Below, in pieces: positions 362 through 23,441 of a DNA stretch of 32,000 nucleotides (its first letter is position 1; each line of letters begins with the position of its first letter). The translations under genes and the position numbers were made by a program. Source of the DNA: Anaerolineae bacterium (GTDB lineage Bacteria; Chloroflexota; Anaerolineae; CG2-30-64-16). Under the pieces are notes generated by a model. It made no database searches. It was given only the letters and a program-made list of their open reading frames with translations, and had not been told where the DNA came from. Location: the NCBI GenBank assembly GCA_034433275.1, contig DAOUAT010000463.1:1090-33089 (forward strand), read 5' to 3'.

Positions 362-1126
362 TCACCCGAGGCCCAACGCCTTGGCTACCAGGCCCTCATG
401 CCAATCCACGACGATCGTCCCTTTGATATCGAACGTCGGCGTGGTTTCGAAGCCGCGGGCCCAGCCGCGCACGCGTTTGGCCGCCTCGCGATCTTTGGAG
501 ATGTCTACCTCGACGTAGGCGATGTCGTGCTCCTTCAGCCACGTCCGCGCCTTGCGACAGTCGCCACACCAGGGGGTGCAGTAGAGCATCACAGCGGCTG
601 CGGGCCGCGCGACGGGCGCCGCCGCCGCCAGTTGATCCGCTTTGGCTAACGCGGCCGCGGCCTCCGGCTCCAACTCGTTGAGCACCCGGAAGATCTCGTC
701 ATTGTCCGGCTGTTGGCCGATGTCGTGTACATCCGCATAGCGGATGTGTCCCTGCTTGTCAATGATGAAGATCGAGCGCTCGGAGAATCCTTCTTTCCGC
801 AGCACGCCGTACAGTTGAGAAACCTGCCCGTGCGGGAAGAAGTCGGCCAGCAGCGGGTAGGTGATCCCCTCGAGGCTGTCTGCCCACGCGCGCAGGCAAT
901 CGGTGCTGTCCACGCTGAGGCCCAGGACCTGGGCCTGCATCCCCTCGAACCGGGCCAGGGCGGCCTGGTAGGAAGGGATCTGGCTCGTTCAGACGGGGGT
1001 CCAGGCCAGCGGGAAGAAGGCCAGCACGACGTTCGTCTTACCGCGGTAGTCGCTTAACCGGATGGTGCGGCCATCGTGGCTTTTCAGGATGAAGTCCGGG
1101 GCCAGTTCGCCCACCTTTACAACCAT
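362..1126 (-). CDS. AhpE-type 1-Cys peroxiredoxin fused to a C-terminal mycoredoxin/glutaredoxin-like domain, with in-frame TGA (989..991) at the peroxidatic Cys position: predicted selenoprotein
   Basis: The ORF track lists only 362..940. The same frame continues upstream to ATG 1124..1126, with GGAGG at 1133..1137. It reads [45 protein letters not shown]-[TGA][27 protein letters not shown].... The TGA falls on the Cys of the Prx motif FFPLAFTxxC. The C-terminus [29 protein letters not shown]...TTPTF resembles mycoredoxin/NrdH-type redoxins. Confidence 0.75.
939..979 (-). promoter_or_regulatory. Candidate SECIS-like stem-loop downstream of the peroxiredoxin UGA
   Basis: On the mRNA, the apical hairpin is CCAGG-CCGC-CCUGG (968..955). 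It is enclosed by AUCCCU (979..974) pairing with GGGGAU (944..939). The structure starts about 9 nt after the UGA. Folded by eye only. Confidence 0.3.
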
Positions 1127-1143
1127 AGGTTGCCTCCTCATGA

Positions 1144-1617
1144 CTATTGCAGCGCCGCGCGTGCGGCCGGGGCGCCGATGGTTTCGAGCACCAGGGTTGC
1201 CTTCAGTTCCGCGGCGATGATACCTGATTCCAGGGCGCGGCGCAGCTCAGGTATCGCGGTGTCGCCCAGGCGCAGCAGGCCGTTTTTGGCGGCCATCACT
1301 TCAGGCGGCCGATCACTATACAGGCCGCGGATCAGCGCGCGGGTAGCGGCCGTGCCGCCGATGCGGGCCAGCGCCTCGGCCGCGGTGCGGCCGACCAGGA
1401 TCTCTTCGTCGTTCAGGGTGCGCTCTAGCACTGGGATCGCGCGAAAGTCGCGGCGCTCGCCCAAGACGAAGGCCGCGCGCCACCGGCCATCCGGGTTGAC
1501 ACGCCAGAGCGCCGCGCGCAGCAGCGCCAGATCGGTGTCCGACGCCAGCTCGACCAGGGCCTGGGCGATGTAAGCCTGTGTCCCTACGTCGCGTGGGCCA
1601 GCTTGTGCGCCAGCCAA
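1144..1617 (-). CDS. HEAT-repeat (PBS-lyase-like) protein; start codon uncertain (TTG at 1617 overlaps the upstream gene)
   Basis: Repeated helical units of the type ...[30 protein letters not shown]...[21 protein letters not shown]... typical of HEAT_2/PBS-lyase repeats. Confidence 0.55.
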
Positions 1618-2198
1618 TCGCCGATCCCGGAGAGATCCTCGGTCGGTAGATAGTGCCCTGCGTGGGCGTCGAACAGCACCCGCGCCTGGCCCGGAAACTC
1701 GTCATCGCCTGCCCACAGCAGGGCGGCCATGGGCAACCGCGGCAGCGCGGCGAAGCGATAGGACGCGTCCGCCAGGTCGAGCGGCGCGCCGCCCAGCGCC
1801 TGCGCCGCGCGCCGGAACCCGGCCAAATCGGCCCCGAATCGCTGCGCCAGCAACCCCTCGGCATGCCCCGCGAACGCCTGGGCGTAGAACATGCCGTCCG
1901 GCAGCTCACGAAACGCCAGCCACCGGTCGGCCGGGGACATGCCATCGGCCCGCAGCAGGTAGTGGATCAGCACGATGGCGATGGTGACGTGCGCGGGCTT
2001 GCCGGTGGCCTGCACCAGCGCCTCGCCTGCCGGGTGGGTCACCAGGTGCGGCCGGCCGAAGTAGGGGATCAGCACTCCCTCCGGGGTCAGCGCGCAGCCA
2101 GCCAGCGCCGCGCAGCGCGCCGGGTCAGCCGCAGCCCAATCGGCCTGGGCGCGGTCATACGCGATTTGGAAGCGGCGGTTGGGGTCGAGTTGGCTCAT
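1584..2198 (-). CDS. Conserved hypothetical protein, DUF3786-like (a family I recall as often adjacent to acetyl-CoA pathway genes)
   Basis: 204-aa ORF containing ...IPYFGRPHLVTHP...FRELPDGMFYAQAF...LWAGDDEFPGQARVLFD...YLPTEDL.... Family assignment is from memory only. Confidence 0.45.
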   Translation of the reverse strand: MSQLDPNRRFQIAYDRAQADWAAADPARCAALAGCALTPEGVLIPYFGRPHLVTHPAGEALVQATGKPAHVTIAIVLIHYLLRADGMSPADRWLAFRELPDGMFYAQAFAGHAEGLLAQRFGADLAGFRRAAQALGGAPLDLADASYRFAALPRLPMAALLWAGDDEFPGQARVLFDAHAGHYLPTEDLSGIGDWLAHKLAHAT

Positions 2199-3406
2199 TG
2201 TCTCGGATTAGTATAGTCATTGCCGATCAGCTCACGAGCGATGATCATGCGCATGATGTTCATGCCGCCTTCCGCGCCGATGGAGTAGGAGCGGACCCCG
2301 CGGATGCCCATCTCGATGGGATACTCGGTGGTGTAGCCCATCGCGCCCAGCCAGTTCGCCACCTCGTTGAAGGTTTCGAACGCCATGATGGGCGCGCGCA
2401 GCTTGGCCATCGCGCCGAACAGGGCGACGTCCTTGTGTTTGAAACTGCCGTTCGCGTACATCTCATCGGCCATCCACGCGGCTTTGTAGGTCAGCAGCCG
2501 GGCAGATTCGATGTCGGTGAAGCGCTCGGCCGCGGGGAAGTTGATGCCCTGGTAGGCCGCCAGGGGTTTGCCGAACGACTTGCGCTGTTTGATGTAGTCC
2601 ACGCCCATTTGCAGGGCGGTCTCGGCCGCGCCGCAGCAGGTGGCGCCAATCAACGCGCGCGCATAGGTGTAGCCCTCCATGGCATAGTAGAAGCCGCGGC
2701 CCGCTTCGCCGATGCGGTAGTGGTCGGCCAACGGCAGGCTTTCCATGTTGAACCCGCCGGTGGAGATGCCGGTGCGGCCCCAGTTGTGGATCAGCGTTGT
2801 GGTGACATGGGGGTTGTCCTTGATGTTGACGGCGAAGAAGGTGAAGCCTTTGTGACCGGCAACCGGGTCCGAGCGCACCAGCGTCATGTACGCGCCGCCC
2901 ATGCGCAGCGCCTCGGTGATGCCGCTGATGTAGAGCTTCTCGCCGTTGAGCACCCAACTGCCGTCGGCCGTGCGCTCGGCGCGGGAGCGCGTGACCCCTT
3001 CGATATCGGAGCCGCCGCCGGGCTCGGTGGACGCGATGCCAAGGAAGTTCTTGCCGGCGGTCACACCGGGGAGGATCTCCGCTTTGAGCGCCTCGCTGGC
3101 GTACCGTTCGAAGACAAAGCCCCAACTGGCCTGCACCAGATACATCACCGGGATGGCCAGGCTGATGTCGGCGCGGCCCAATTCCTCCGCGGCGATAGTG
3201 GCCATGGTCATGTTCATGCCCTGGCCCCCATATTTTTCGGACACCGTGGGCGCCCACAACCCCATGTCGGCCATCCCTTTGATGATTTCCTCCGGGATGT
3301 GATGGCCGCTGTCAATCTCGCGCACGCGCGGCGCGATCTTCTTCTGCGCAAAGTCGCGCACCGCCTTGCGCCACATCTGTTGTTCTTCGGTCCAACCAAA
3401 CTCCAT
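2195..3406 (-). CDS. Acyl-CoA dehydrogenase family flavoprotein
   Basis: 403 aa. MEFGWTEEQQMWRKAVRDFAQKKIAP..., ...LGIASTEPGGGSD..., and a C-terminal IGAEGGMNIMRMIIAREL resembling the ACAD signature (IYEGTxxIxxxxIxR). 4-nt overlap with the downstream ORF. Confidence 0.9.
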   Translation of the reverse strand: MEFGWTEEQQMWRKAVRDFAQKKIAPRVREIDSGHHIPEEIIKGMADMGLWAPTVSEKYGGQGMNMTMATIAAEELGRADISLAIPVMYLVQASWGFVFERYASEALKAEILPGVTAGKNFLGIASTEPGGGSDIEGVTRSRAERTADGSWVLNGEKLYISGITEALRMGGAYMTLVRSDPVAGHKGFTFFAVNIKDNPHVTTTLIHNWGRTGISTGGFNMESLPLADHYRIGEAGRGFYYAMEGYTYARALIGATCCGAAETALQMGVDYIKQRKSFGKPLAAYQGINFPAAERFTDIESARLLTYKAAWMADEMYANGSFKHKDVALFGAMAKLRAPIMAFETFNEVANWLGAMGYTTEYPIEMGIRGVRSYSIGAEGGMNIMRMIIARELIGNDYTNPRQ

Positions 3407-3423
3407 GACTTCCTCCTTGAAGT

Positions 3424-3478
3424 GATCAGGGGCCAGGGGGTAATGGTCAGGGTTGTCGCCTGTCTCCTGACTCCTGAC
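3424..3478. repeat. Heptad-type inverted repeat element (TCAGGGG-like units, then TCCTGAC x2)
   Basis: GATCAGGGG / CCAGGGG / GGTCAGGG (3424..3452), a spacer, then TCCTGAC TCCTGAC (3465..3478). GTCAGG pairs with CCTGAC. Lies between the stop of the CBS gene (3482) and the start of the ACAD gene (3406). Confidence 0.35.
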
Positions 3479-3481
3479 GGG

Positions 3482-3898
3482 CTATTCCCGCTCAGTTGTC
3501 TTCACCAGCGCAGCCACCAGGTCGCTGCTGGAGATGATCCCCGCGAGCTTATGCTCCTCGATGACGATGGCATTCTGAATACCGACGCGCGCCATGAGCT
3601 GGGCCACGAAGGGCAGCCGCAAGTTAGGGTTGATCACGATCAGAGGCTTGACCATGATCTCGCCGACCCGCGTGCGCGTGGGGGAAAGCGACTTGGCGAT
3701 CAGGCGGTAAACGATTTCCTGGAATGTCAAGATGCCGTAAGCGTCGTCTTCGTCGGCCCGGTCCACGATCGCCGCCTGACAGTTGCATTTGAACATGGCT
3801 TCGACCGCCTCTTGTACGGTGGCGATTGGCGAAACCAGAGTAAAGTTGCGGTTCATGACGTCACGCGCGCGCAAGGAATAGATCTCGTGAGGTTGCAT
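3482..3898 (-). CDS. Stand-alone CBS-pair domain protein
   Basis: The start is taken at ATG 3896..3898, preceded by AAGGAG. MQPHEIYSLRARDVMNRNFTLVSPIATVQEAVEAMFK...GILTFQEIV...VGEIMVKPLIVINPN...IVIEEHKLAGIISSSDLV gives two CBS motifs. The longer track ORF (to 4252) has a non-protein-like N-terminus. Confidence 0.8.
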   Translation of the reverse strand: MQPHEIYSLRARDVMNRNFTLVSPIATVQEAVEAMFKCNCQAAIVDRADEDDAYGILTFQEIVYRLIAKSLSPTRTRVGEIMVKPLIVINPNLRLPFVAQLMARVGIQNAIVIEEHKLAGIISSSDLVAALVKTTERE

Positions 3899-7768: not shown

Positions 7769-8710
7769 TCACTCCGAAAAAACAGTCTGCGGGGGCCTGG
7801 GATACAGGCCGGCGCGCGTGACGATCTCGGGCACGGCCTCGGCCCAGTGAACAGCCATGATATGAACGCCAGCGACCCCAGGAATCTGGCGCACCTGCTC
7901 GATGATCTCGACACAGATGTGGATGCCCTCTTCGGGCTGGGCGGCCTTCGGGGTCTTGCTCATCCGCTGGACGATCTCGTCGGGCACCTCCATGCCGGCC
8001 ACTTTGGTCGCCATGAAGTTGGCCTGTCCTGCCGACTTGACCGGTCCGACCCCGGCCAGGATGTAGACCTGCCTGTCCAGGCCCAGGTCGCGCACGCGAG
8101 CCATATAAGCCTCGAATCGTTTCACGTTGTAGATCAGTTGAGTCTGCACAAAACGCGCGCCCGCGGCCACCTTCTTGCCCAAACGCAACGGCCGATAGTC
8201 GAAAGGCGGCGCAAATGGATTGGCCGCTGCGCCGATGAACAACTGCGGCGGCAATGTGACCGACCGCCCGTTGTCCAAGGCGCCGTGCTCGCACAAGTTG
8301 CGCGCCATGCGGATCAGGTGCATGGAGTCCACGTCGTAGACACTCTTGGCTTCGGGATGGTCGCCCCAGATGCCGTGGTCGCCGCTCAAACAGAGCAGGT
8401 TGCGGATACCCAAGGCGGCCGCGCCTAACAGATCGGCCTGGATCGCCAGGCGGTTACGGTCGCGGCAGGTCATCTGGGCGACTGGCTCAATACCGTGGCG
8501 GAGCAAGATCGCCGCCACAGGAATGCTGGCCATCCGCACGCTGGCCGCCTGATTGTCGGTGACATTGACCGCGTCGGCGTAGTTGCGCAGGGTCTGCGCG
8601 TCGCGGGCAATTGCTGCCAGGTCTACCCCCTTCGGGGGCGAAAGCTCCGCGGCGACGGCAAATTGGCCGGCTTGCAACACCGCCTCCAGGTGGCTGATGG
8701 GAGTGGGCAC
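7769..8710 (-). CDS. metF: Methylenetetrahydrofolate reductase, acetogen-type small MetF (copy 2); start uncertain (GTG 8710 or upstream 8764)
   Basis: ...AAELSPPKGVDL...VNVTDNQAASVRMASI...QMTCRDRNRLAIQADLLGAAALGIRNLLCLSGDH...FIGAAANPFAPP...FVQTQLIYN.... It is a clear paralogue of the 11541..12527 gene. Confidence 0.85.
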   Translation of the reverse strand: MPTPISHLEAVLQAGQFAVAAELSPPKGVDLAAIARDAQTLRNYADAVNVTDNQAASVRMASIPVAAILLRHGIEPVAQMTCRDRNRLAIQADLLGAAALGIRNLLCLSGDHGIWGDHPEAKSVYDVDSMHLIRMARNLCEHGALDNGRSVTLPPQLFIGAAANPFAPPFDYRPLRLGKKVAAGARFVQTQLIYNVKRFEAYMARVRDLGLDRQVYILAGVGPVKSAGQANFMATKVAGMEVPDEIVQRMSKTPKAAQPEEGIHICVEIIEQVRQIPGVAGVHIMAVHWAEAVPEIVTRAGLYPRPPQTVFSE

Positions 8711-8711
8711 G

Positions 8712-9482
8712 TTAGAATTCCTCGATGATCGCTTGACGGATGGCTTCTTCGGTGGTCGCACCACTCAACTTTGGGTGTCCGTTGATGAAGACACCGTAGG
8801 CCACGCCGTAACGTTGCAACGTCTCGGGGCTGAGCACTTCGTGACGAACCACCACACGCTCCCCAAACTCGCGCGCGACGTCCAACAAGAGCATCTGGGT
8901 TGCAGTTTCGAAGGGACAGAGGTAGCCAGCCAGGATCAGGATCTCCACGGGCAGGCCACGGCGAGGTTGGAGGCGCGGCTCAAAGGGCCGGACGCTCACC
9001 TGGGGCTGGCCCAACGGCAGATAGAGCAACCTGCGGTCACCGGCTTCGTGCACAACTGTGAAGCCGCGGGCCAGGTAATGGCGGTAGTGCATCTGATCTT
9101 CGCGCGTGGTGGCTTCCACCAGGATGCCCTTGCTGCCCTGGTCGCGCACGGCGGCCTCAAAAGTCGCGAACAATTGCCGCCCCAGGCCCTGTCCCTGATG
9201 CCGGCGCTGCACCCACTCGCAGTAGAGCACGGCCACCCCCGGCTCGATCTCATAGGGGACCAGGGCCCGTTCCGACGCTGCGTAGTAGAGCTGGCCCACC
9301 GCAACGCCGTTGGCATCCTGCACGTGGTAGCCTTCGACGTAACGGCCCAGGTTTTGGCTCACCCAGGTGCGACAGACGTTGAGCGCAGCAGGCCAGGGCG
9401 TGGGCACTTCGGCCGTGCAACAAAAAGCCTGTTGGGCCTCTCCCGCGCTCTCAATCCGTTTTACAATCACTTGCCCGTCCAT
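8712..9482 (-). CDS. GNAT N-acetyltransferase fused to a C-terminal thioredoxin-fold domain
   Basis: The start is taken at ATG 9480..9482. The GNAT core is ...VAVLYCEWVQRRHQGQGLGRQLFATFEAAVRDQGSKGILVEA...YLARGF. The C-terminal VEILILAGYLCPFETATQMLLLDVAREFGERVVV...YGVFINGHPKL looks like a small thioredoxin-like fold with a single Cys (CPFE). Confidence 0.6.
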   Translation of the reverse strand: MDGQVIVKRIESAGEAQQAFCCTAEVPTPWPAALNVCRTWVSQNLGRYVEGYHVQDANGVAVGQLYYAASERALVPYEIEPGVAVLYCEWVQRRHQGQGLGRQLFATFEAAVRDQGSKGILVEATTREDQMHYRHYLARGFTVVHEAGDRRLLYLPLGQPQVSVRPFEPRLQPRRGLPVEILILAGYLCPFETATQMLLLDVAREFGERVVVRHEVLSPETLQRYGVAYGVFINGHPKLSGATTEEAIRQAIIEEF

Positions 9483-9505
9483 CCTTCCCCCCACAGCCGC
9501 TTTGT

Positions 9506-9976
9506 TCAGCCCTTGCGCACCACGCGCAGTCGCCGGTCCACGCCCCTCAGCAGATTGATCCACGACGACGTGCCCGGGAGCTGCCAGTTGACGGGCGGCT
9601 GCTCGGTCAACAGCTCCTGGCCCCAAATCGTCATCTTCTGGCTGCGCTCATAGGCATCCACCCAGACGCAGCGCATCTCCGGCTTGACCTCGCAGTGGCC
9701 GTTCAGGCGCACGCCACCGCACGGCCCGTTGCGCAGGTTCTTGGGACAGGTCATCGGGCAGGTCATGCCGGTGTAGTGCAGGATGCACTGGCCGCACAGG
9801 CGACAGTCGAAGACCGCCTTCTTGCTCAGATCCTCGAAAGGCAGGATCACCTTCGCAACGCGGTCGTAGCCGACGCGGGCAAAGAACGGATTCAGCCGGT
9901 GCAACACCCACTCGGCAGCCTGCCACAGGCGTTCGAGGGCGTGTGGATGATCTTGAATGATGCGGCGGAGGCCCAT
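9506..9976 (-). CDS. Short MetV-like protein (methylene-THF reductase C-terminal zinc-ribbon-like domain only)
   Basis: The start is taken at ATG 9974..9976, 2 nt after the hdrCB stop. ...FDCRLCGQCILHYTGMTCPMTCPKNLRNGPCGGVRLNGHCEV...CVW... parallels ...CQACGDCILDLTGGICPIARCSKQLLNGPCGGSQKGKCEV...CAW... in MetV (12541..13218). Confidence 0.7.
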   Translation of the reverse strand: MGLRRIIQDHPHALERLWQAAEWVLHRLNPFFARVGYDRVAKVILPFEDLSKKAVFDCRLCGQCILHYTGMTCPMTCPKNLRNGPCGGVRLNGHCEVKPEMRCVWVDAYERSQKMTIWGQELLTEQPPVNWQLPGTSSWINLLRGVDRRLRVVRKG

Positions 9977-9978
9977 TC

Positions 9979-11403
9979 CTAATCCACCAGCCCCTTCTGG
10001 CGCAACGCCGGCCGCGGGTCCACCAGGTTCTTCTCCAGGAGCGCCGTTTTCTCCCCCAACCCGAAGGCCAGCGCTGCAAGCTGCGTTGCATACAGCACCG
10101 GCATGGCGAAGCCCAGATCTTTGATCTGTGCCTGGCGGCCGTCCAGGTTGACGTGGCACAACGGACAAACGGTGACAACCACATCCGCGCCGCGCTCCCT
10201 GGCATTGCGCAGCACCTTGGCCGTCATCTGATGGGCCAACGGGGTTTGAGTCAGGCCCAAGGATCCGCCGCAACAATCGGTCTTGTAGTCCCACATCACC
10301 GGCTCGGCGCCGAGCCGACGCATCAGGTAGTCCATGTCCATGGGATACTCCGGATGCTCGGCGCCGGTGATCTCAGCCGGCCGGGTGATGTAGCAGCCGT
10401 AATAGCAGGCCACCTTCAGTCCGCTCAACGGTTTTTCCACCGCCCTCTCGATCCGATCCAACCCCGCCTTTTCGACTAGCGTCTCCACCAGGTGCATGAC
10501 CCGCACCTTGCCCGCATACTGGTAACCGATCTCCTGGGTGATCTGCTGCGCCATCTCTGGGTTGTGGGCCATCTCGTGGGCCGCGGTTTTGAAGCGGCTA
10601 TAGCAGGCAGCGCAGGGCGTGGTGACCTCCTCCAGGCCCATCTGCTCGATGATGGAGAGGTTGACCACCGGATACCTGGTTGCCAGGACGCGGTCGGTGG
10701 AGTGCGCCGGGCTGGAGCCACAGCAGATCCAGCCGGGCGGCTCAATCAGCTCCAGGTCGAGCTTCTCGGCGATGGCTTCGATGGTGCGGTGGTATTCGCT
10801 GGCCGACGAATGAAGCGAACAGCCGGGGTAGTAGGCAACCCGGGTGGGCGCAGCTTCCACCGCCTTAACCTGCCCGGGCTTAGGCGGCCGGGTGGGCAGC
10901 GAGACCAGATGCAACTTGCCCCGCTTGAGCATCTCCACCGCCATGTCCATATCTTTGAACAGGTTGCGGTTGAGCAGGTTCAAGCCGGCCATCAGCCCGA
11001 CTTCGTGGAGGCGGCCCATCAGCTTCACATCCATCAAGAAAAGGCGTGCGAAGCGATCCACCTCGGGGACGGCGGCCGGGATGCCCCGGCGACGGGCTTC
11101 GATGCGCAGCGCATCCATGACGGCCGCTATGTCAATGCCCTGGGGACAGCGCGTGGTACACGTCTCACACGAGGCGCACAGCCAGATGGCCTTGCTCTCC
11201 AGCACCGAAGCGTCTCCTAACTGCACGCTGCGCATCACCTGGTTGGGGGTCAAATCGAAATACTCGGCCAGGGGACAGCCGCTGGTGCACTTCAGGCACT
11301 GATAGCACAAGTAGGCGTTCTCGCCGACGATGCGCTGGATCGCCGCGGCCAAAGGTTCGGCTGTGGCCGGCGATGCAGCGGTGGTTGCTTTCATTATAGG
11401 CAT
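9979..11403 (-). CDS. Heterodisulfide reductase-like iron-sulfur protein, HdrC-HdrB fusion (HdrD-like): 2x[4Fe-4S] domain plus two CCG domains
   Basis: The start is taken at ATG 11401..11403, with GAGG 7 nt upstream. CYQCLKCTSGCP and CASCETCTTRCP are the ferredoxin motifs. YYPGCSLHSS...WICCGSSP and CYYGCYITRP...TDCCGGSLG are the two CCG domains. Confidence 0.85.
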   Translation of the reverse strand: MPIMKATTAASPATAEPLAAAIQRIVGENAYLCYQCLKCTSGCPLAEYFDLTPNQVMRSVQLGDASVLESKAIWLCASCETCTTRCPQGIDIAAVMDALRIEARRRGIPAAVPEVDRFARLFLMDVKLMGRLHEVGLMAGLNLLNRNLFKDMDMAVEMLKRGKLHLVSLPTRPPKPGQVKAVEAAPTRVAYYPGCSLHSSASEYHRTIEAIAEKLDLELIEPPGWICCGSSPAHSTDRVLATRYPVVNLSIIEQMGLEEVTTPCAACYSRFKTAAHEMAHNPEMAQQITQEIGYQYAGKVRVMHLVETLVEKAGLDRIERAVEKPLSGLKVACYYGCYITRPAEITGAEHPEYPMDMDYLMRRLGAEPVMWDYKTDCCGGSLGLTQTPLAHQMTAKVLRNARERGADVVVTVCPLCHVNLDGRQAQIKDLGFAMPVLYATQLAALAFGLGEKTALLEKNLVDPRPALRQKGLVD

Positions 11404-11446
11404 GTCATACCTCGTAATCAGCGGCAAGGAGACCTAACCCCCCCAA

Positions 11447-11540: not shown

Positions 11541-12527
11541 TTAATCCACCACCGGCCGCGGCAAGAGGCCAGCCCCCTCGACAAGCGGCTTCACAGCTTC
11601 TTCCCACTCGATGGCCATGATGTGGATGCCGGCGACACCGGGGATCTCCCGGATCTGCTGAATCTGCTCGATGCAGATCTTGATGCCGGCATCGCGCCAG
11701 GCGGCCGCGCGCGCTTTCTTATCTTCTTTGGGAATGTTAGCAACGGCCGCTTCCATGCGATCCACGTATTCGTCGGCGACGATCATGCCCGGCACCTGGT
11801 CGCGCATGTATTTGGCCGCGCCGCTGCTCTTAAGCGGCCCCACGCCGGCCAGGATCTTCACTTTCTCGTGTATGCCCAGGTCCACGACCCGCTTCATGTA
11901 CTCCCGGAAGCGCGGGATGTCGTAGATCAGCTGTGTCTGGATGAAGTCCGCGCCCGCGGCAGCTTTCTTGGCCAGACGGTAGGGTCGGAACTCGAACGGG
12001 TCGCCGAAGGGATTGGCCGCCGCGCCGATGAAAAAGCGCGGGCCGCCGCCTTTGATCTCCTCGCCGCACTGGAATTTGCCTTCATCGCGCAGGCCCTTGA
12101 CGATTTGTACGAGCTGCAGCGAGTCCACGTCGTGGACGTTTTTGGCGAAGGGATGGTTGCCGAATGACTGATGATCGCCGGTCAGGCAGAGCACGTTTTT
12201 GATCCCCAGCGCACTCGCACCCAGCAGGTCGGCCTGCATGGCCAGCCGGTTGCGATCGCGGCAGGTCATCTGAATGATCGGCTCCAGCCCTGCGCGCAAC
12301 ACCAACACGCCGGCCGCAATGCTGCTCATGCGGACGATGGCCGTCTGGTTGTCAGTCAGGTTAACCGCGTCCACGACCCCCTTGAGCAAGGCCGCTTTCT
12401 TGCGGATGACCTCGGCATCATGGCTCTTGGGCGGCCCCAACTCGCCGGTGACCGCGAAGCATCCTTTGGTCAACACGCGCTCCAGGTTGCTGCCCGCCCA
12501 ATAACCGTTCGTTGAAATGTCAGACAT
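11541..12527 (-). CDS. metF: Methylenetetrahydrofolate reductase, acetogen-type small MetF (copy 1)
   Basis: The start is taken at ATG 12525..12527, preceded by AAGGAGG. MSDISTNGYWAGSNLERVLTKGCFAVTGELGPPKSHD...VNLTDNQTAIVRMSSI...QMTCRDRNRLAMQADLLGASALGIKNVLCLTGDH...FIQTQLIYD.... Confidence 0.9.
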   Translation of the reverse strand: MSDISTNGYWAGSNLERVLTKGCFAVTGELGPPKSHDAEVIRKKAALLKGVVDAVNLTDNQTAIVRMSSIAAGVLVLRAGLEPIIQMTCRDRNRLAMQADLLGASALGIKNVLCLTGDHQSFGNHPFAKNVHDVDSLQLVQIVKGLRDEGKFQCGEEIKGGGPRFFIGAAANPFGDPFEFRPYRLAKKAAAGADFIQTQLIYDIPRFREYMKRVVDLGIHEKVKILAGVGPLKSSGAAKYMRDQVPGMIVADEYVDRMEAAVANIPKEDKKARAAAWRDAGIKICIEQIQQIREIPGVAGIHIMAIEWEEAVKPLVEGAGLLPRPVVD

Positions 12528-12540
12528 AGCCAGGTCCTCC

Positions 12541-13218
12541 TTATTCTTCCGCCAACCGCAAATCGTCCCGCACAATCCGGCGCGGGCCACCATCACGGCT
12601 GGTACGCCAGTCTTTGGACGGCTGAACTTGCAGCAAACGATCGAGCATCCCCAGCGCGCCCATCCGCTCCCAGATCAACTGCCAGGCGCAAGGGGTTTCC
12701 TCGCTCACCTCGCACTTGCCCTTTTGCGAGCCGCCGCACGGCCCGTTGAGCAGCTGTTTCGAGCAGCGTGCAATGGGGCAGATGCCGCCGGTCAGGTCGA
12801 GGATGCAGTCGCCGCAGGCCTGGCAGCGCTCCTCCCAGATGCCCTGCTCGGTGGGCAGGCCCATGAAGCGGGTATTCAGGCCGGGCAACACACGCTTGTC
12901 GGGGAAACGCTCAGCCAACGTCTGCACGCCGACACCACAGCCCAAGGAGAGGATGGCGTCGTAATTGGCCCACCGCTCGCGCAAGGGATCAATGTACTCC
13001 CACTCGCATTGGCGTTGAACGGTCACCTCGTCCATCGCGATCCCGTGGCCGTCCAGCCGGGTGGCCATGCGCAGCGCCGATGCCAGGATGCCGACCTCCT
13101 TTTCGCCGCCCGCCAGGCAGACGGTGACGCAGGTGCCGCAGCCCACCACAAGCACCTTTTGGTAGCTTTCGAGCATCTCTTTGATTTCGGCCAGCGGTTT
13201 TTGTTCAGCAACAATCAT
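12541..13218 (-). CDS. metV: MetV (methylene-THF reductase-associated zinc/iron-sulfur subunit)
   Basis: 225 aa. N-terminal VLVVGCGTCVTVCLAGGEKEV, and C-terminal CQACGDCILDLTGGICPIARCSKQLLNGPCGG. Its ATG overlaps the mvhD1 stop (ATGA at 13215..13218). Confidence 0.85.
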   Translation of the reverse strand: MIVAEQKPLAEIKEMLESYQKVLVVGCGTCVTVCLAGGEKEVGILASALRMATRLDGHGIAMDEVTVQRQCEWEYIDPLRERWANYDAILSLGCGVGVQTLAERFPDKRVLPGLNTRFMGLPTEQGIWEERCQACGDCILDLTGGICPIARCSKQLLNGPCGGSQKGKCEVSEETPCAWQLIWERMGALGMLDRLLQVQPSKDWRTSRDGGPRRIVRDDLRLAEE

Positions 13219-13670
13219 TCCTCACCTCCGACGGTATCTTTCTTCGCAAAGTGCCGACCCAACGGATTAGGTCCGAGTTTCCGAATGTGCGCGTCCATCT
13301 CGGTTGCAATCTCGGCGAAACGCGCGCCCATGGCCGCTGACAGGTTGACCATCTGGACGCGTTCGGCCCCCAAACCGATCTGGTTCAGCAGGTCACGCAC
13401 GTACTCGATGCGTTTTTTGGCTTGCAGATTACCTTCCAGGTAATGGCACTCTCCGGGCAGTCAGCCAGCGGCAAAGACGCCGTCGGCGCCCGCCTCGAAG
13501 GCGTGCAACACGTGCAGCACGTCGAGCTTGCCGGTGCAGGGCAGCTCGAAAACCTTCACCGAAGACGGGTATTGGATGCGCAGGCCACCTGCGAGATCGG
13601 CTGCCGCATAGGCACAATGATGGCAGCAAAAGGCAATGATGCGCGGCGTCCAGCCAACGTCTTCGCTCAT
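13215..13670 (-). CDS. mvhD: MvhD-like protein (methyl-viologen-reducing hydrogenase delta subunit family) with in-frame TGA at 13461..13463: predicted selenocysteine
   Basis: Track ORFs 13461..13670 and 13215..13400 are in the same frame (456 nt in total). Read-through gives ...LHAFEAGADGVFAAG-[TGA]-LPGECHYLEGNLQAKKRIEYVRDLLNQIGLGAERVQMVNLSAAMGARFAEIATEMDAHIRKLGPNPL.... This aligns residue-for-residue with the paralogue (18587..19021) ...LDAFEHGADGVYIVG-C-PIGNCHHVRGNERARKRIERAKKLLDEIGIGGQRLEIYFVSGGMGETFARVAREMTDRIQALGPNPL. Confidence 0.8.
13423..13448 (-). promoter_or_regulatory. Candidate bacterial SECIS stem-loop downstream of the mvhD1 UGA
   Basis: On the mRNA: UGA-N16-AUUACC-UGGAA-GGUAAU, a 6-bp stem (13444..13439 / 13433..13428). 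It is extendable by UGC/GCA across a small internal loop. The apical loop contains GG and lies about 26-30 nt from the UGA. Folded by eye. Confidence 0.45.
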
Positions 13671-16600
13671 TGCAATACCTCCTCGAACAGGACGTCAATC
13701 TTCGCCAGGACCTGCGCGTCGGTATAGTGCATCAGTTGAATGGCCCGGGCCGGGCAGGCCGCCGCACACGAGCCACAACCGTGACAAAGGGCCGCCTCGA
13801 TCTGCGCGGCGCCCACGATGCCGCCAACGCCGGTGAGCGACGCCACTACGCGCGGGGCATCATAAGGGCAGGTGCGCACGCAGGTCAAGCAGGCCACGCA
13901 GCGCGCGTCATCCACGACCGCCACGCGGCCGCCGACCTCAAGGGTATCCTTGGAAAGGAGCGTGGCCGCGCGCGCTGCGGCCGCCTGGGCCTGGACGATG
14001 CTCTCCGCCAACAGCTTGGGATAGTGCGCCAGGCCTGCCATAAAGATGCCCTCGGAGGAGAAATCCACCGGCCGCAGCTTGACGTGCGCCTCCAGGAAGA
14101 ACCCCTCCATATCCACCGAGACCTTCAGCCGCTTGCTCAATTCGCGCGCACCTTCGCTGGGCACCACCGACATGCTCAACACCAACAGATCGGGCCGCAA
14201 GACCATCTCACGGCCCAGGGGCGGCTCCCAAACTCGCACCTCGAGGCCGGTAGATTGATCAGCCGGTAAATTCAGTAGATCACGATTTCGATGCTCCAAG
14301 CCGGTCTGCCCGCCCTGGCTACGCCACGCGGGCCAGGGTGACCAGCGGTTGAGGGTCACAGACCCCCTCTGAGCCTGAATCTGTGCTCCACTGACATTCA
14401 TAGACTGGGCGCCAGACAATGTGTTGTGCATCGCAGATCCCTGGGCGGCGATTGTCACCTGGGGCTTACGATCGAAGTCGTAGCGCACAAAGCGCACTCC
14501 GGCCCGCCGCGCCTCGGTATACAACCGTTCCTTGAACCCATAGGTGCGGATGTCCCGATAGAGCACCGTGATCTCCGCGGCGGGGTTAAGCCGTTTGAGC
14601 ATCAGCGCGTTCTTCAGCGCCGTGGTGCAGCAGATGCGGGCACAGTATTGCTCGGCCGGGCCAACACACTGGATCATGACAACGGATGACGGGTGCTGGG
14701 TATCCGGTATTGGGGAATGCTCAATACCTGATGCCCGATTTGCCAGCCACGCCTCGAACTCTTGCTGCGTTAGAATCCTCGGGTCGCTCCCATACCCGTA
14801 CTCGTTCCCGCGATACTCCTGGCCGCCGGTAGCGACGATCGTTGCGCCGTGGTACACCTCGAAACGGCGGAAGGTGGCGCCCAGGTCCTGTTGCAGGACC
14901 GACGTGAAATTGCCCTGAACCCCGCCAGTCTCCACCAGCTCTGTCTGCAGATGGAGGTTGATCAACGGATGGGATTCGACGCGATGGATCAGGCTGGTCA
15001 GGTACTCATGAACATTGGATATCTGGCATTGGGTATAAGAACCAACATCCACTACCGACTGCCCAAGACCATGTTCCAACCCCAAGTCGCGCAGCGTGTA
15101 GTGCACCTTGCGCAGGTTGCCCCCCAATTCCCTGCTCCGCTCCGCCAGGTGCACCGGGAAGCCCTGTTCGGCCAGGGTGAGGGCAGCCGTCATGCCCGCC
15201 GCGCCGCCGCCGATGACCAGGACGCTCTTGCAGGTCGTCAGCGGCGTCGTGTGCAGCGGCTGGAGCCGGGCCGCGCGCGCAACGGCCATGCGCACCAGCT
15301 CCTTGGCTTTGGCTGTGGCTGTCGGCCGGTCGTCGGAGTGTACCCAGGAGCACTGGTTACGAATATTGGCCATCTCGAATAGATACGGGTTCAGCCCGGC
15401 CGCCCGGATGCTGCTCTGGAACAGCGGCTCATGGGTCAGCGGCGTGCACGACGCGACGACGACTCGATTGGCCCCTAACTCCTTCACTTTCTCGGTGATG
15501 TGTATAATGCTGTCCTGCGAGCAGGTATAGAGATTGTGCTCGGCATGGATGACGTGGGGCAGCGAACGAGCATATTCGGCCACCGCGGGCACATCCAGAA
15601 AGCCGGCGATGTTCGATCCGCAGTGGCAGACGAAAACAGTTACCCGCGGCTCCTCATGGGTTACATCGCGCTCCGGCGGGTATTCCGGCACACGGGTCAG
15701 CGTGCCGCGCGCACGCGCCAGCAATGCGCCAGCCGCGGCCGCCGCGCCGCTCGCCTCCACCACCGATTCGGGGATATCCTTGGGTTCGCGGAACGGGCCG
15801 ACCGCGTAAATGCCGGGCTTGCTGGTCTGCAATGGATCGAACAGAACAGTGTGGCAAAAGCCATAATCATCCAACTCAATGCCCAGTCGCTGCCCCAACT
15901 CCCGCACCTCGGGGGCGACCTCCATGCCAACGGAAAGGACGACCAGGTCGAATTCTTCCTGACGAATAGGCGAGTGGGCGAATGGCGGATCTATCTCCTG
16001 CTGATGCGCTGGTTCGTCCACGTAGCGCAAGATCAAATTGCCGTTGGCCGGGTTCTCTTTGAGCGCCGAAATGCGACAACGGGTGTACTTGATGCCGTAT
16101 TTCTCAATCGCCCGCCGATAATAGGGCTCATAGCCTTTGCTGAAAGCGCGCATGTCCATCATGAAGACATGAACTTCCGTGTCCCGCTCGTGTTCGATGG
16201 CCATGATGGCCTGTTTGGTGGCGTACATGCAGCAAACGGCCGAGCAGTAATCGTGCGACCGGTCGCGCGAGCCGATGCACTGCAAGAACGCGATCTTCCG
16301 CGGTCGGCGACCATCTGACGGCCGCTTCACATGTCCCATGGTGGGACCGGAGGCGCTCATCAGGCGTTCCAGTTGCAACGCGGTGATCGCGTTGGGATAG
16401 CGGCCCCAGCCGAACTCCTCTGCAAGCTCGGCCCGATAGACCTGATAGCCCGGGGCCAGGATGACCGCGCCGACGTTGAACTCGCAGGTGCGTTCGACCA
16501 TATCATGGTCAACCGCGCCCACGCCACACTTGTACCAGCAGCTCAAACACTCGGAGCAGATGCCGCAGGCCAGACAACGGGCAGCCTCGGCCTGGGCCAG

Positions 16601-18553
16601 CTCGGCCGTATAGCCCATCTCAACTTCAGCAAAGCCCTTGACCCGCTGCTCCGGCGGCAGTTCGGGCATGGGCACGCGCGGGGTGATCTTGAGCTCCCCA
16701 CGCTGGATGCGCTCGGCGAGCTCGGCCTGGGTCAGCTTGACCACCGGGAGTTCGGGTTTCGGCTTGGGCTCCAACGCTTCTCCGCGCAGGTAGCGGTGGA
16801 TGGACTCGGCGCACTTATGGCCGCTGGCGACCGCCTCGATCACAAACGCGGTACCGCTCACGCTGTCGCCAGCCGCAAAGACGCCGGGCCGGGTGGCCGC
16901 GAAAGTGTTGGGGTTTATCGCAATGGTGCGTTTGGCGGTCAGCCCCACCCCGGCGTCGGCCGGGATAAACGCCAAACCGGCCCGCTGGCCCACAGAGAAG
17001 ATCACCACGTCGGCCGGCAGCACGTGCTCTGAGCCGGGTACCGTCTCGACCGAGAGCCGGCCCTGGTCATCGAACTCGAAATGCGCTACGCGACGGCACT
17101 CGACACCGCCGGCCCGGCCATTGCTGCCTTCAACCACGCGTACGAAGGTGCGATCGTTGTGAATGACGATCCCCTCATCCAGCGCGGCCTGCACCTCCCA
17201 GGCATGCGCGGGCATGTTCTCGCGGCCTTCCAGGCATGCCATCTGCACCTCGGCCGCGCCCAGGCGGACGGCGGTACGCGCCACATCAATCGCCACGTTG
17301 CCGCCGCCCAGCACCAGCACCCGCTTTCCCTGTATCTGCGATCGGGGATCAGCGCCGACTGATTTACTGAACGCGTCGCCGCCCTGTAGGACTCGCTGAT
17401 TCGCTGATTCGTCCCTCAGCTCGGCCAGCCGCACGTCGCGCAGGAATTGGGTATTGATCAGCACGCCTTCAAGGTTGTTGCCGGGAATCGGCAGGCGAAC
17501 GCCTTCGTGTGCGCCAACCGCAATGAGCACGGCCTTGTAACCCGCATTGAAGAGATCGTCCAGGTTGACAATGGTGGTGTTGAGGCGCAGCTCAACCCCC
17601 AGGTCAACGATATCCTGCACCTCGCGATCCACGATCCAACCTGGCAGGCGATATTCGGGCACGCCGACGCGCAACATGCCGCCCGCCACCGGCAACGCCT
17701 CGAAAACCGTCATCGGGTAGCCCAGCAGGGCCAGGTCTTGTGCCGCGGTCAGGCCACATGGCCCCGCGCCGATGATCGCCACCCGCTCTTCGTACTGCTT
17801 GGGGACAGGGTCACGGGGCACGCGCGGCTGCGCGTATATCGTGTCAGTGACGAAGCGCTTGAGCGCATGGATGTTGACCTGGTCATCCACTTTGCCGCGG
17901 TTGCAGGCATCCTCGCAGCGATGGTTGCAGATGCGGCCACAGATGCCGGGGAAGGGGTTGTCCTCCTTGATCACGCGCAGGGCATCGTCGAAGCGGCCCT
18001 CGCGGATCAGCGCGATATAGCCTTGCGCGCGCTGGTGCGCCGGACAGGCATCGCGACAGGGCGCGATCCCCCGCTTCTCGATGACGTAGGCATTGGGAAT
18101 AGCTTGCGGGTAGAGCTTATGGGCGGCGCGTTGTTGCTTCAGGCCTTCATCGAAATGGGAGGGGATCACCACCGGGCAGACCTGGGCACATTCGCTGCAG
18201 CCGGTGCACTTCGCCACGTCAATGTAGCGCGGCCGCGTGCGCACGATCACGGTAAAATTGCCTGCCGTGCCCCGCAGGCCAGTGACATCGCTGTCTGTCA
18301 GGATTTCGATGTTAAGGTGCCGGCCCGTCTCGACCAGCTTAGGCGAGATGGTGCACATTGCGCAGTCGTTGGTGGGGAAGGTCTTGTCCAGTTGCGCCAT
18401 ATGGCCGCCGATGGCCGACTTGTGTTCCACCAGGTAGACTTTGTAACCGGCCTCAGCCAGGTCAAGGCTGGCCTGCATCCCCGCGATGCCGCCCCCAACG
18501 ACCATCACCGCCCCGATGACGTTTTCTGAAGCGTCGCGACCGTTGCCAGCCAT
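13667..18553 (-). CDS. hdrA: Giant HdrA-family flavo-iron-sulfur protein (1628 aa): HdrA FAD module interrupted by an NfnB/GltD-like NAD(P)H:FAD module, then a second complete HdrA-like unit ('HdrL-like')
   Basis: VMVVGGGIAGMQASLDLAEAGYKVYLVEHKSAIGGHMAQLDKTFPTNDCAMC is the HdrA FAD domain, and CTGCSECAQVCP is a ferredoxin motif. CRDACPAHQRAQGYIALIREGRFDDALRVIKEDNPFPGICGRICNHRCEDACNRG, RVAIIGAGPCGLTAA, KRVLVLGGGNVAIDVA and GVFAAGD form the GltD/NfnB-like part (about 16778..18073). FLQCIGSRDRSHDYCSAVCCMYATK follows. VFVCHCGSNIAG...VVVASCTPLTHEPLF...ANIRNQCSWVH corresponds to the N-terminal domain of canonical HdrA. Then KSVLVIGGGAAGMTAALTLAEQG and MIQCVGPAEQYCARICCTTALK. The C-terminus has CVACLTCVRTCP and CHGCGSCAAACP. 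Its stop overlaps the mvhD1 ATG (ATGA). Confidence 0.85.
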   Translation of the reverse strand: MAGNGRDASENVIGAVMVVGGGIAGMQASLDLAEAGYKVYLVEHKSAIGGHMAQLDKTFPTNDCAMCTISPKLVETGRHLNIEILTDSDVTGLRGTAGNFTVIVRTRPRYIDVAKCTGCSECAQVCPVVIPSHFDEGLKQQRAAHKLYPQAIPNAYVIEKRGIAPCRDACPAHQRAQGYIALIREGRFDDALRVIKEDNPFPGICGRICNHRCEDACNRGKVDDQVNIHALKRFVTDTIYAQPRVPRDPVPKQYEERVAIIGAGPCGLTAAQDLALLGYPMTVFEALPVAGGMLRVGVPEYRLPGWIVDREVQDIVDLGVELRLNTTIVNLDDLFNAGYKAVLIAVGAHEGVRLPIPGNNLEGVLINTQFLRDVRLAELRDESANQRVLQGGDAFSKSVGADPRSQIQGKRVLVLGGGNVAIDVARTAVRLGAAEVQMACLEGRENMPAHAWEVQAALDEGIVIHNDRTFVRVVEGSNGRAGGVECRRVAHFEFDDQGRLSVETVPGSEHVLPADVVIFSVGQRAGLAFIPADAGVGLTAKRTIAINPNTFAATRPGVFAAGDSVSGTAFVIEAVASGHKCAESIHRYLRGEALEPKPKPELPVVKLTQAELAERIQRGELKITPRVPMPELPPEQRVKGFAEVEMGYTAELAQAEAARCLACGICSECLSCWYKCGVGAVDHDMVERTCEFNVGAVILAPGYQVYRAELAEEFGWGRYPNAITALQLERLMSASGPTMGHVKRPSDGRRPRKIAFLQCIGSRDRSHDYCSAVCCMYATKQAIMAIEHERDTEVHVFMMDMRAFSKGYEPYYRRAIEKYGIKYTRCRISALKENPANGNLILRYVDEPAHQQEIDPPFAHSPIRQEEFDLVVLSVGMEVAPEVRELGQRLGIELDDYGFCHTVLFDPLQTSKPGIYAVGPFREPKDIPESVVEASGAAAAAGALLARARGTLTRVPEYPPERDVTHEEPRVTVFVCHCGSNIAGFLDVPAVAEYARSLPHVIHAEHNLYTCSQDSIIHITEKVKELGANRVVVASCTPLTHEPLFQSSIRAAGLNPYLFEMANIRNQCSWVHSDDRPTATAKAKELVRMAVARAARLQPLHTTPLTTCKSVLVIGGGAAGMTAALTLAEQGFPVHLAERSRELGGNLRKVHYTLRDLGLEHGLGQSVVDVGSYTQCQISNVHEYLTSLIHRVESHPLINLHLQTELVETGGVQGNFTSVLQQDLGATFRRFEVYHGATIVATGGQEYRGNEYGYGSDPRILTQQEFEAWLANRASGIEHSPIPDTQHPSSVVMIQCVGPAEQYCARICCTTALKNALMLKRLNPAAEITVLYRDIRTYGFKERLYTEARRAGVRFVRYDFDRKPQVTIAAQGSAMHNTLSGAQSMNVSGAQIQAQRGSVTLNRWSPWPAWRSQGGQTGLEHRNRDLLNLPADQSTGLEVRVWEPPLGREMVLRPDLLVLSMSVVPSEGARELSKRLKVSVDMEGFFLEAHVKLRPVDFSSEGIFMAGLAHYPKLLAESIVQAQAAAARAATLLSKDTLEVGGRVAVVDDARCVACLTCVRTCPYDAPRVVASLTGVGGIVGAAQIEAALCHGCGSCAAACPARAIQLMHYTDAQVLAKIDVLFEEVLQ

Positions 18554-23363: not shown

Positions 23364-23441
23364 TGACGAATGACGAATGACGGATGACGAAGGACGAAGC
23401 TGCCCTTTGGCGTTTCGTCCTTCGTCGTCGGTCCTTCGTCA
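23364..23441. repeat. Heptad inverted-repeat element (TGACGAA-type units x5, spacer, reverse-complement units x4)
   Basis: TGACGAA TGACGAA TGACGGA TGACGAA GGACGAA (23364..23398), a 15-nt spacer, then TTCGTCC TTCGTCG TCGGTCC TTCGTCA (23414..23441). The perfect 13-bp core stem is 23386..23398 / 23414..23426. The right arm overlaps the stop codon of the TrxR-like gene. Confidence 0.6.

Follow-up and report, generated by a model that had tools for sequence, protein, structure and literature searches.

Does the TGA that interrupts a minus-strand reading frame of an Anaerolineae bacterium (contig DAOUAT010000463.1) end a gene, or is it read as selenocysteine (Sec) within one? The frame occupies positions 362..1126 of the 32-kb stretch of DNA analyzed here (the window, to whose whole length all coordinates refer), and would encode a peroxiredoxin (Prx) joined to a glutaredoxin (Grx)-like domain. 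Our analysis indicates that it is very probably one 254-residue selenoprotein gene, in which the UGA at 989-991 specifies Sec where an AhpE-like peroxiredoxin, presumably of the one-Cys type, has its peroxidatic residue. That the frame is a genuine, translated selenoprotein gene is highly probable from the comparison of related loci, from which we also infer Sec insertion itself.

In the mechanical list of open reading frames (ORFs), the frame is split into two products, 989..1141 (50 aa) and 362..940 (192 aa). When read through, it gives a product of 254 residues with the context FFPLAWTPV-[TGA]-TSQIPSY, and the internal TGA at 991-989 is the sole in-frame stop before the terminal TGA at 364-362. 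An earlier note on this DNA had described an ATG at 1126, a GGAGG at 1133..1137 and one TGA at 989..991, and all of these are present in the minus-strand sequence (Table 1). There is a second in-frame ATG at 1141-1139, within the Shine-Dalgarno region. The family alignment, in which the ATG aligned to 1126 opens 78 of the 80 coding sequences, supports 1126 as the predicted start.

Relatives were sought by a genome scan, with one genome per species, in which 328 genomes encode a relative; the locus counts given here refer to the best 80 of the 328. These loci come from Chloroflexota, mostly from Anaerolineae/Anaerolineales metagenome-assembled genomes (MAGs), plus one bin labelled Acidobacteriota, at identities of 55-83%. 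The TGA is in frame at the same column in all 80 loci, between FFPLAWTP(V/I) and (T/S)xQIPS, a pattern far beyond chance. A protein search found 606 relatives, with a bimodal length distribution. The closest of them (60-83% identity) are 183-210 aa long and have their first residue just past the TGA, and the full-length relatives (~250 aa) have Gly, Trp or Cys at the TGA column. Among the best 120 clusters of this search, about 90 are truncated just past the site, six have Trp or Gly and 22, which are more distant, have Cys; two more full-length entries were left unclassified by the motif search. The Cys-form homologues are 51-59% identical to the window protein.

A codon alignment of the 80 sequences indicates how the two sides of the TGA have evolved. 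Residues 1-45 and residues 47-150 alike have a mean identity of 72% to the window, and in codons 2-44 the nucleotide entropies at the three codon positions (0.72/0.56/1.48) are those expected from purifying selection on a protein. Met63, at which the 192-aa ORF starts, is found in just 47 of the 80 sequences, and so there is no conserved internal start. As a gene terminator, TGA is used at 29 of the 80 loci, next to TAA at 27 and TAG at 24, and the window gene itself ends in TGA; TGA is thus in regular use here as a stop, which excludes genetic codes 4 and 25. The earlier note had argued that truncation is unlikely, and had looked to the homologues for either Cys or UGA at this column. The equal conservation on both sides of the TGA and the scarcity of Met63 bear out the argument, both residues are indeed found at the column, and the region 941..1126 is conserved as coding, with stops in the relatives that are not randomly placed.

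Gene callers give 45-aa and 191-195-aa products at the related loci, and the public annotations of the fragments are 'glutaredoxin', 'arsenate reductase-like glutaredoxin family protein' and 'hypothetical protein'. The gene, conserved in many Anaerolineae, appears to be widespread and unannotated, a conserved enzyme that databases show only as a truncated 'glutaredoxin' and that no NCBIfam model rescues. Among the full-length gene calls of JGI, ENA and Logan, Gly is called in proteins P0007 and P0012, and Trp in P0011, P0018, P0032 and P0033. The Gly and Trp calls are artefacts that arise when code 25 or 4 is chosen for short contigs from metagenomes, and alignments of the family could be misled by them.

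The residues that surround the TGA are those of a peroxiredoxin active site. Residues 5-130 match the Pfam family AhpC-TSA (PF00578) with an E-value of 4e-38 and 130.5 bits, against a cut-off of 26, and P39, T43 and R117 are invariant in the family. As the earlier note had placed it, the TGA falls at the position of the peroxidatic Cys, in the arrangement P39-x3-T43-x2-U46 with R117, and it is at this column that the distant homologues have Cys. The top seven sequence matches in the PDB are all Mycobacterium tuberculosis AhpE (E 1e-29 to 1e-28, the next family following at 2e-22), with 39% identity over 141 residues. For the fold, an AlphaFold model was used of a 59%-identical Cys homologue, not of the window protein; its mean predicted local distance difference test (pLDDT) is 89.7 and its predicted template modelling (TM) score 0.75, and confidence is low only at the active-site loop. 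This homologue model overlays AhpE with a TM score of 0.90 and a root-mean-square deviation (rmsd) of 1.7 A (range TM 0.87-0.91, rmsd 1.7-2.2 A). Both comparisons agree with the assignment to the AhpE type that had been made from the letters of the window.

The linker that follows is poorly conserved, with a mean identity to the window of 39% as against 72% in the core, and the pLDDT of the homologue model dips there. The best solved relative of the C-terminal half is M. tuberculosis mycoredoxin-1 (Mrx-1; entry 2LQO, E 9e-9), and the homologue model gives this domain a confident beta-alpha-beta-alpha-beta-beta-alpha order. WCxxC is found in all 80 sequences, as CPAC in 28, CPGC in 18, CPDC in 11 and CGDC in four, the window included. 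The NCBIfam mycoredoxin model TIGR02200 scores 51.7 bits, below its cut-off of 89.5, and the YruB family scores similarly (52.5 vs 88.55). 'Mycoredoxin-like', the term under which the domain was first noted, is therefore best taken as resemblance and not as family membership: the likeness to Mrx-1 stands and the place in the mycoredoxin family does not. The Prx-Grx fusion is shared by the Sec forms and the Cys forms.

The sequence that follows the TGA is also constrained as RNA. The normalized synonymous-codon entropy is 0.79 in codons 1-44, 0.51 in codons 45-71 and 0.79 in codons 72-254, and codons 45-71 have the lowest value of 130 contiguous windows, whereas the codons 5' of the TGA are free to vary at their synonymous sites. 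There is thus selection at the RNA level just 3' of the TGA, where two hairpins covary. An ungapped alignment of 84 nt and 81 sequences gives a covariation score of 0.208; the value for shuffles is 0.126, with none of 500 attaining 0.208, and controls with slid partners do not exceed 0.063. The earlier note had directed the search for a selenocysteine insertion sequence (SECIS) to 930..990; the predicted recoding RNA does lie partly there, but it reaches 918 and its best-conserved hairpin is the distal one.

The lower stem of hairpin 1, in which 979-972 pairs with 946-939, has 91% of its cells paired. Its pair 24-54, composed of the synonymous third base of a Pro codon and the third base of a Glu/Asp codon, is UA in 23 sequences, AU in 18, GC in eight and CG in six. 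Hairpin 1 folds in nearly all 80 sequences (mean -18.4 kcal/mol), with an apex that varies in sequence and in size (3-15 nt) and an upper stem that is variable too. Of two alternative apical structures that were compared for it, neither is strongly conserved, and our description of hairpin 1 is confined to the lower stem and the ACC/GGU tier. Hairpin 2 has 98.8% of its cells paired and a mean energy of -10.9 kcal/mol. It shows compensatory changes at pair 63-79 (GC in 51, UA in 24) and at pair 64-78 (AU in 63, GC in 16), and its synonymous sites are near-frozen (ACC in 64 of 64, CAG in 78 of 80). The apex is CAGGUCCUG (CA-GGUCC-UG) with an invariant G-U in the loop, and the motif occurs a single time in the window. 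In three Cys-form loci, hairpin 1 is absent from all three, and hairpin 2 is lost in two and weakened, with an AUC loop, in the third.

Some of the relatives carry genes that point to Sec decoding. Directly 3' of the TGA-bearing Prx-Grx gene, selD is found in a Thermoflexales MAG (L014), a JGI metagenome (L087) and a Logan assembly (L088). The adjoining selD scores 371 bits on TIGR00476, with a cut-off of 125, and itself has a TGA at the catalytic CAG-U-ASK site. Also, the MAG with the whole-genome shotgun prefix JAFGSI01 has both the Prx-Grx gene (L077) and a Sec-containing selD (L090). From these sequences, the SelD of Anaerolineae/Thermoflexales MAGs is predicted to be a selenoprotein itself, which would require a working Sec-insertion system in these relatives. 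Gene callers shorten the Sec-containing selD to 313-336 aa, and the closest SelD relatives in the protein collection, several of them named Anaerolineales SelD, are mostly N-terminally truncated likewise. At 33 nt past its UGA, selD has a hairpin of the form GGCGCA-(C/G)GU(G/C)(U/C)-UGCGCC, which is GGCGCA-GGUCC-UGCGCC in L090 and a close variant in L089, L014, L087 and L088. Separately, locus L089 has at 2490-2711 a SelW-like gene (Rdx, PF10262) with CVV-TGA as a CxxU motif, where a hairpin, GCCAUC-AGUUU-GGUGGC, begins 15 nt after the TGA; by its motif, this gene is likely another selenoprotein of the lineage.

Several further results bear on the interpretation given so far, some of them against it. 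All the homologues derive from metagenome-assembled genomes. The 32-kb window has no tRNA gene (ARAGORN) and no sel gene match; in 60 relatives' loci ARAGORN found no tRNA-Sec, the single tRNA being a tRNA-Arg in L014, and tblastn with E. coli SelA, SelB and SelD over ~0.55 Mb of window and relatives' DNA found only selD in L014 and no selA or selB. In the NCBIfam scan no model reaches its cut-off, which gives no curated family assignment, and there is no AhpE model among the matches. Folding of 920-1000 alone does not differ significantly from shuffles (z = -1.25); because a single-sequence fold is uninformative in G+C-rich DNA, covariation was used. A Rfam scan of 700-1300 at E <= 10 returned chance-level eukaryotic matches only and no family. 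No Cys is found towards the C-terminal end of the Prx domain, but Cys77, present in 84% of the sequences, could act as the resolving residue in place of the CxxC domain. Finally, the bacterial SECIS model has a loop of 3-9 nt, a distance of 16-37 nt from the UGA to the loop and a minimum free energy of -7.5 kcal/mol or below (PMC13188914; PMC10778597). At 60 nt past the UGA, the loop of hairpin 2 is beyond the published distance, and the apical loop of hairpin 1, at 22-30 nt, is within it.

These distances raise the question of which hairpin binds SelB. The published loop rule places a G in the first two loop positions, in the pattern N1-G-[G|U]-N-N2 (PMC13188914). The loop of hairpin 2, G69-G-U-N-C73, fits this pattern, and the loop, stem and energy of hairpin 2 are within the model; of the 80 apices of hairpin 1, 53 carry such a G and only eight match G[G|U]. 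We favor hairpin 2 because of its likeness to the selenoprotein hairpins of the same lineage, namely those of selD and of the SelW-like gene. Within the MAG JAFGSI01, hairpin 2 of the Prx gene (GACCCAGGUCCUGGGUC; GACCCA-GGUCC-UGGGUC) and the selD hairpin (GGCGCAGGUCCUGCGCC; GGCGCA-GGUCC-UGCGCC) share the 9-mer CAGGUCCUG. The apex is also like that of the E. coli fdhF element, CAGGUCUG, with a stem of 8 bp in hairpin 2. The fdhF element itself, GCAGGUCUGC, which contains GCA-GGUC-UGC, was confirmed as 100% identical in >5400 genomes. Unlike fdhF and the published SECIS consensus, hairpin 2 has its loop at 60 nt instead of 16-37 nt, and a covarying 41-nt hairpin fills the interval.

It is therefore somewhat more probable than the alternatives that hairpin 2 serves as the SelB-binding site and that hairpin 1 acts by looping out 41 nt. 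Su, Li and Gladyshev reportedly found in 2005 that an E. coli SECIS far downstream is functional if base-pairing brings it close to the UGA. With hairpin 1 looped out, the unpaired path from the UGA to G70 would be 9 + 2 + 8 = 19 nt and G70 would be the 20th nucleotide, in agreement with the conserved loop G found ~20 nt after the UGA in bacterial elements (PMC4605307). It is less likely, though it is the alternative that survives best, that the same selenoprotein is decoded with hairpin 1 (979..939) as the SelB-binding SECIS and with hairpin 2 as an accessory, for example one that causes a pause, adds stability or offers SelB a second site. The distance of its loop, its folding energy, its covarying stems and the G in 53 of its 80 apices would all suit such a role, but the apex of hairpin 1 is conserved neither in sequence nor in size and rarely matches G[G|U], while it is hairpin 2 that has the invariant G-U loop, the frozen synonymous sites and the 9-mer in common with the selD hairpin of the same MAG.

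Should hairpin 2 bind SelB, the element could tentatively be regarded as a bacterial SECIS class outside the current consensus, with the SelB hairpin 60 nt from the UGA and a separately evolving 41-nt hairpin that loops out the conserved helix-coding sequence past the active site, thereby moving the SelB hairpin within reach, and its gene as encoding the first selenium-containing AhpE-type peroxidase with its own Mrx-like reductant; we put this combined proposal forward as slightly less likely than not. If the arrangement is a general one, selenoprotein genes of this kind would systematically escape SECIS searches confined to 16-37 nt. The two-hairpin element tests the spacing rule of bacterial SECIS predictors and could explain missed genes.

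The fusion of the two domains suggests how the enzyme may work. In M. tuberculosis, the one-Cys peroxiredoxin AhpE has Mrx-1 as its reductant (PMC6178380), a pairing that the earlier note had named, and so the fusion joins homologues of a known peroxidase-reductant pair. It is likely, from the comparison of the two halves with this pair, that the CxxC domain is the reductant of the peroxidase. In the electron path proposed, the selenol of Sec46 would reduce the hydroperoxide and be converted to a selenenic acid, which Cys187 would attack to form a selenenyl-sulfide. The Ala-rich linker, being flexible, would let Cys187 reach the selenenic acid of its own chain or that of the partner in a dimer. 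Cys190 would then resolve the selenenyl-sulfide, leaving a CxxC disulfide that an external reductant would reduce.

An unlikely alternative is that the CxxC domain is not the reductant and leaves the resolution of the selenenic acid to Cys77 or to an external thioredoxin. Under this alternative, the Grx-like domain would have another role, with the same low probability, for instance as a redox relay to other targets, in Spx-like regulation or in arsenate-reductase-like chemistry. The conservation of Cys77 accords with it, and the C-terminal domain resembles Spx and ArsC-related proteins as well, at lower scores. On the other hand, WCxxC is invariant, the fusion is kept in Sec and Cys forms alike, the best solved relatives of the two halves, AhpE and Mrx-1, are experimentally coupled, and there are known Prx-Grx hybrids whose Prx is reduced by the Grx domain. 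These points favor the tethered CxxC domain as the reductant.

It is very improbable that the UGA is translated as anything other than Sec, whether as Trp or Gly by an alternative code, or as Cys or Trp by near-cognate read-through that the hairpins stimulate. Downstream RNA structures can stimulate stop-codon read-through generally, and some gene calls from JGI and ENA put Trp or Gly at the position. The use of TGA as the terminator of 29 of the 80 orthologues and of the window gene nevertheless excludes codes 4 and 25, and Trp or Gly at the peroxidatic position, where the homologues have Cys, would abolish catalysis. Moreover, hairpin 2 and the hairpin of a Sec-containing selD in the same MAG agree at the apex, and such a selD adjoins the gene in three loci. 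With Sec as the residue encoded, Cys insertion via the Sec machinery under selenium limitation may still occur as a minor outcome. Least tenable of all is a genuine stop, giving a pseudogene, or a 45-residue peptide followed by a 192-residue redoxin/glutaredoxin protein from Met63: it fits the products that gene callers annotate, the 'glutaredoxin' of the database names and the normal use of TGA as a stop in these genomes, but not a TGA that keeps its column in all 80 diverged genomes, with the frame intact and equal purifying selection on both sides, an internal Met63 in only 47 of them, a 192-aa product devoid of the Pro, Thr and peroxidatic residues, Cys at the column in more distant homologues, or covarying hairpins 3' of the codon that are absent or degraded in the Cys forms.

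The predicted selenoprotein can be compared with three known systems. Among bacterial selenoproteins, the peroxiredoxins with Sec in a TxxU motif form an established family (PMC1794560, PMC13188914, PMC9312934), in line with the earlier note, which had pointed to their existence. With this family, represented by PrxU of Eubacterium acidaminophilum, the window protein has in common the PF00578 domain, Sec in place of the peroxidatic Cys in PxxxTxxU and the existence of Cys homologues; it differs in being AhpE-like, in its fused glutaredoxin-like domain, in its Anaerolineae host and in its two-hairpin recoding RNA. Identity with PrxU itself was rejected, as the model NF040737 gives 65-67 bits (65.4-66.8) against a cut-off of 270. 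With M. tuberculosis AhpE (Rv2238c) and Mrx-1 (Rv3198A), the two halves share the catalytic Pro, Thr and Arg and the CxxC, respectively, whereas the window protein is one polypeptide and has a peroxidatic Sec instead of Cys. The motif of the second half is mostly CP(A/G/D)C in the window family and CGYC in Mrx-1. Mycothiol is not known in Chloroflexota.

The third system is that of the hybrid Prx-Grx proteins of the PGdx type, found for example in Haemophilus influenzae, which are of the Prx5 type, have Cys and depend on glutathione. They have the same order as the window protein, with Prx at the N-terminus, Grx at the C-terminus and the reductant thus tethered, but the window protein is of the AhpE type with Sec. 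Neither the 60 top-ranked sequence matches nor the 50 top-ranked fold matches include a Prx5 or hybrid structure, and the fusion is probably independent of that in PGdx. No paper was found on an AhpE-type Sec-peroxiredoxin or on a Sec-Prx/Grx fusion, a weak negative given incomplete coverage of the literature. Relative to the Sec-peroxiredoxins that have been described, the new features would be the different subfamily, the reductant fused to the peroxidase and the unusual two-hairpin geometry of recoding. A natural fusion of AhpE-like and Mrx-1-like domains provides independent genomic support for the AhpE/mycoredoxin partnership, and, because Cys orthologues of the same architecture exist, such a self-contained selenoperoxidase suits a comparison of Sec with Cys. 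If Sec is inserted as we infer, selenium would be used in the oxidative-stress defence of anaerobic Anaerolineae.

Table 1. Positions of the predicted gene and its parts, of the neighboring cluster and of selD in related loci (window coordinates unless a locus is named)
Feature	Position	Strand	Remarks
Predicted selenoprotein coding sequence	362..1126	-	254 codons including one UGA (Sec46); terminal TGA 362-364; frame, start and TGA kept in 80 loci
Start codon ATG	1126-1124	-	Read from the sequence
Shine-Dalgarno GGAGG	1137-1133	-	6 bases 5' of ATG 1126-1124
UGA as predicted selenocysteine U46	991-989	-	Peroxidatic site of PxxxTxxU; TGA in 80/80 loci; Cys in homologues
AhpE-like peroxiredoxin domain	737..1114	-	Residues 5-130; catalytic P39, T43, U46, R117; Pfam AhpC-TSA
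Ala/Pro-rich interdomain linker	596..676	-	Residues 151-177; low identity, pLDDT dip
Glutaredoxin/mycoredoxin-like domain	413..592	-	Residues 179-238; Pfam Glutaredoxin E 5e-13
CxxC motif C187-G-D-C190	557..568	-	W186 before it; WCxxC in 80/80
Hairpin 1	979..939	-	41 nt, starts 9 nt past UGA; 8-bp lower stem, ACC/GGU tier, variable apex
Hairpin 2, AGGCCCAG-GUC-CUGGGCCU	936..918	-	8-bp stem, G-U-N apical loop; RNAalifold consensus
Cluster: MTHFR paralogues	7769-8764 and 11541-12596	-	
Cluster: HdrD-like Fer4+CCG protein	9979-11427	-	
Cluster: HdrA-like flavoprotein/ferredoxin fusions	13667-18553; 19080-22214	-	Very large; 1628 aa and 1044 aa
Cluster: TrxB-like reductase	23439-24350	-	
Cluster, further: CBS protein, FolD, malic enzyme, pterin-binding methyltransferase, CooC-like ATPase, RACo		-	
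selD with TGA at CAG-U-ASK	L014 3773-4825; L087 ~1750-2807; L088 ~950-2009; L089 and L090 ~9900-10990		

In about 17 of the 80 loci (within L001-L046), genes for a CBS protein, an acyl-CoA dehydrogenase, a DUF3786 protein and, in some, a HEAT-repeat protein are located 5' of the Prx-Grx gene in the same orientation. In the window, the upstream genes occupy 1144-3898, with overlaps or very short gaps between them, which suggests that CBS, acyl-CoA dehydrogenase, DUF3786, HEAT (where present) and Prx-Grx constitute an operon of unknown logic. On the other side, queA is convergent with the Prx-Grx gene, and its stop is at 262-264 in the window. Between the two stops (that of Prx-Grx being at 362-364), a perfect 12-bp inverted repeat, TAGCGCAAGATG / CATCTTGCGCTA, was observed at 296-321, with no T tract. 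It may be a terminator-like hairpin that acts in both directions, and it was not reported by a consensus terminator scan.

Further along the minus strand, at 7117-31868, is a cluster of the Wood-Ljungdahl or methyl-branch type, as would suit an anaerobic member of the Anaerolineae. In some organisms HdrA is a selenoprotein, but the ORFs of this cluster, the HdrA-like fusions included, showed no evident in-frame TGA. A scan of the window for other genes with an in-frame TGA was too noisy, as long spurious ORFs are common in high-GC DNA. Inside the cluster, a 304-aa ORF (8712-9626, minus strand) has no Pfam match; the TGA upstream of it, at 9648-9650, was considered as the mark of a selenoprotein and rejected, since the upstream frame is Arg-rich nonsense. 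Finally, a contig of 11.7 kb from another assembly (L086; GCA_037441915.1, JBBIRH010000065.1) encodes an identical 192-aa product with neighbors 99-100% identical to those of the window, and this near-identity points to at least two assemblies of one strain or of strains that are almost identical.

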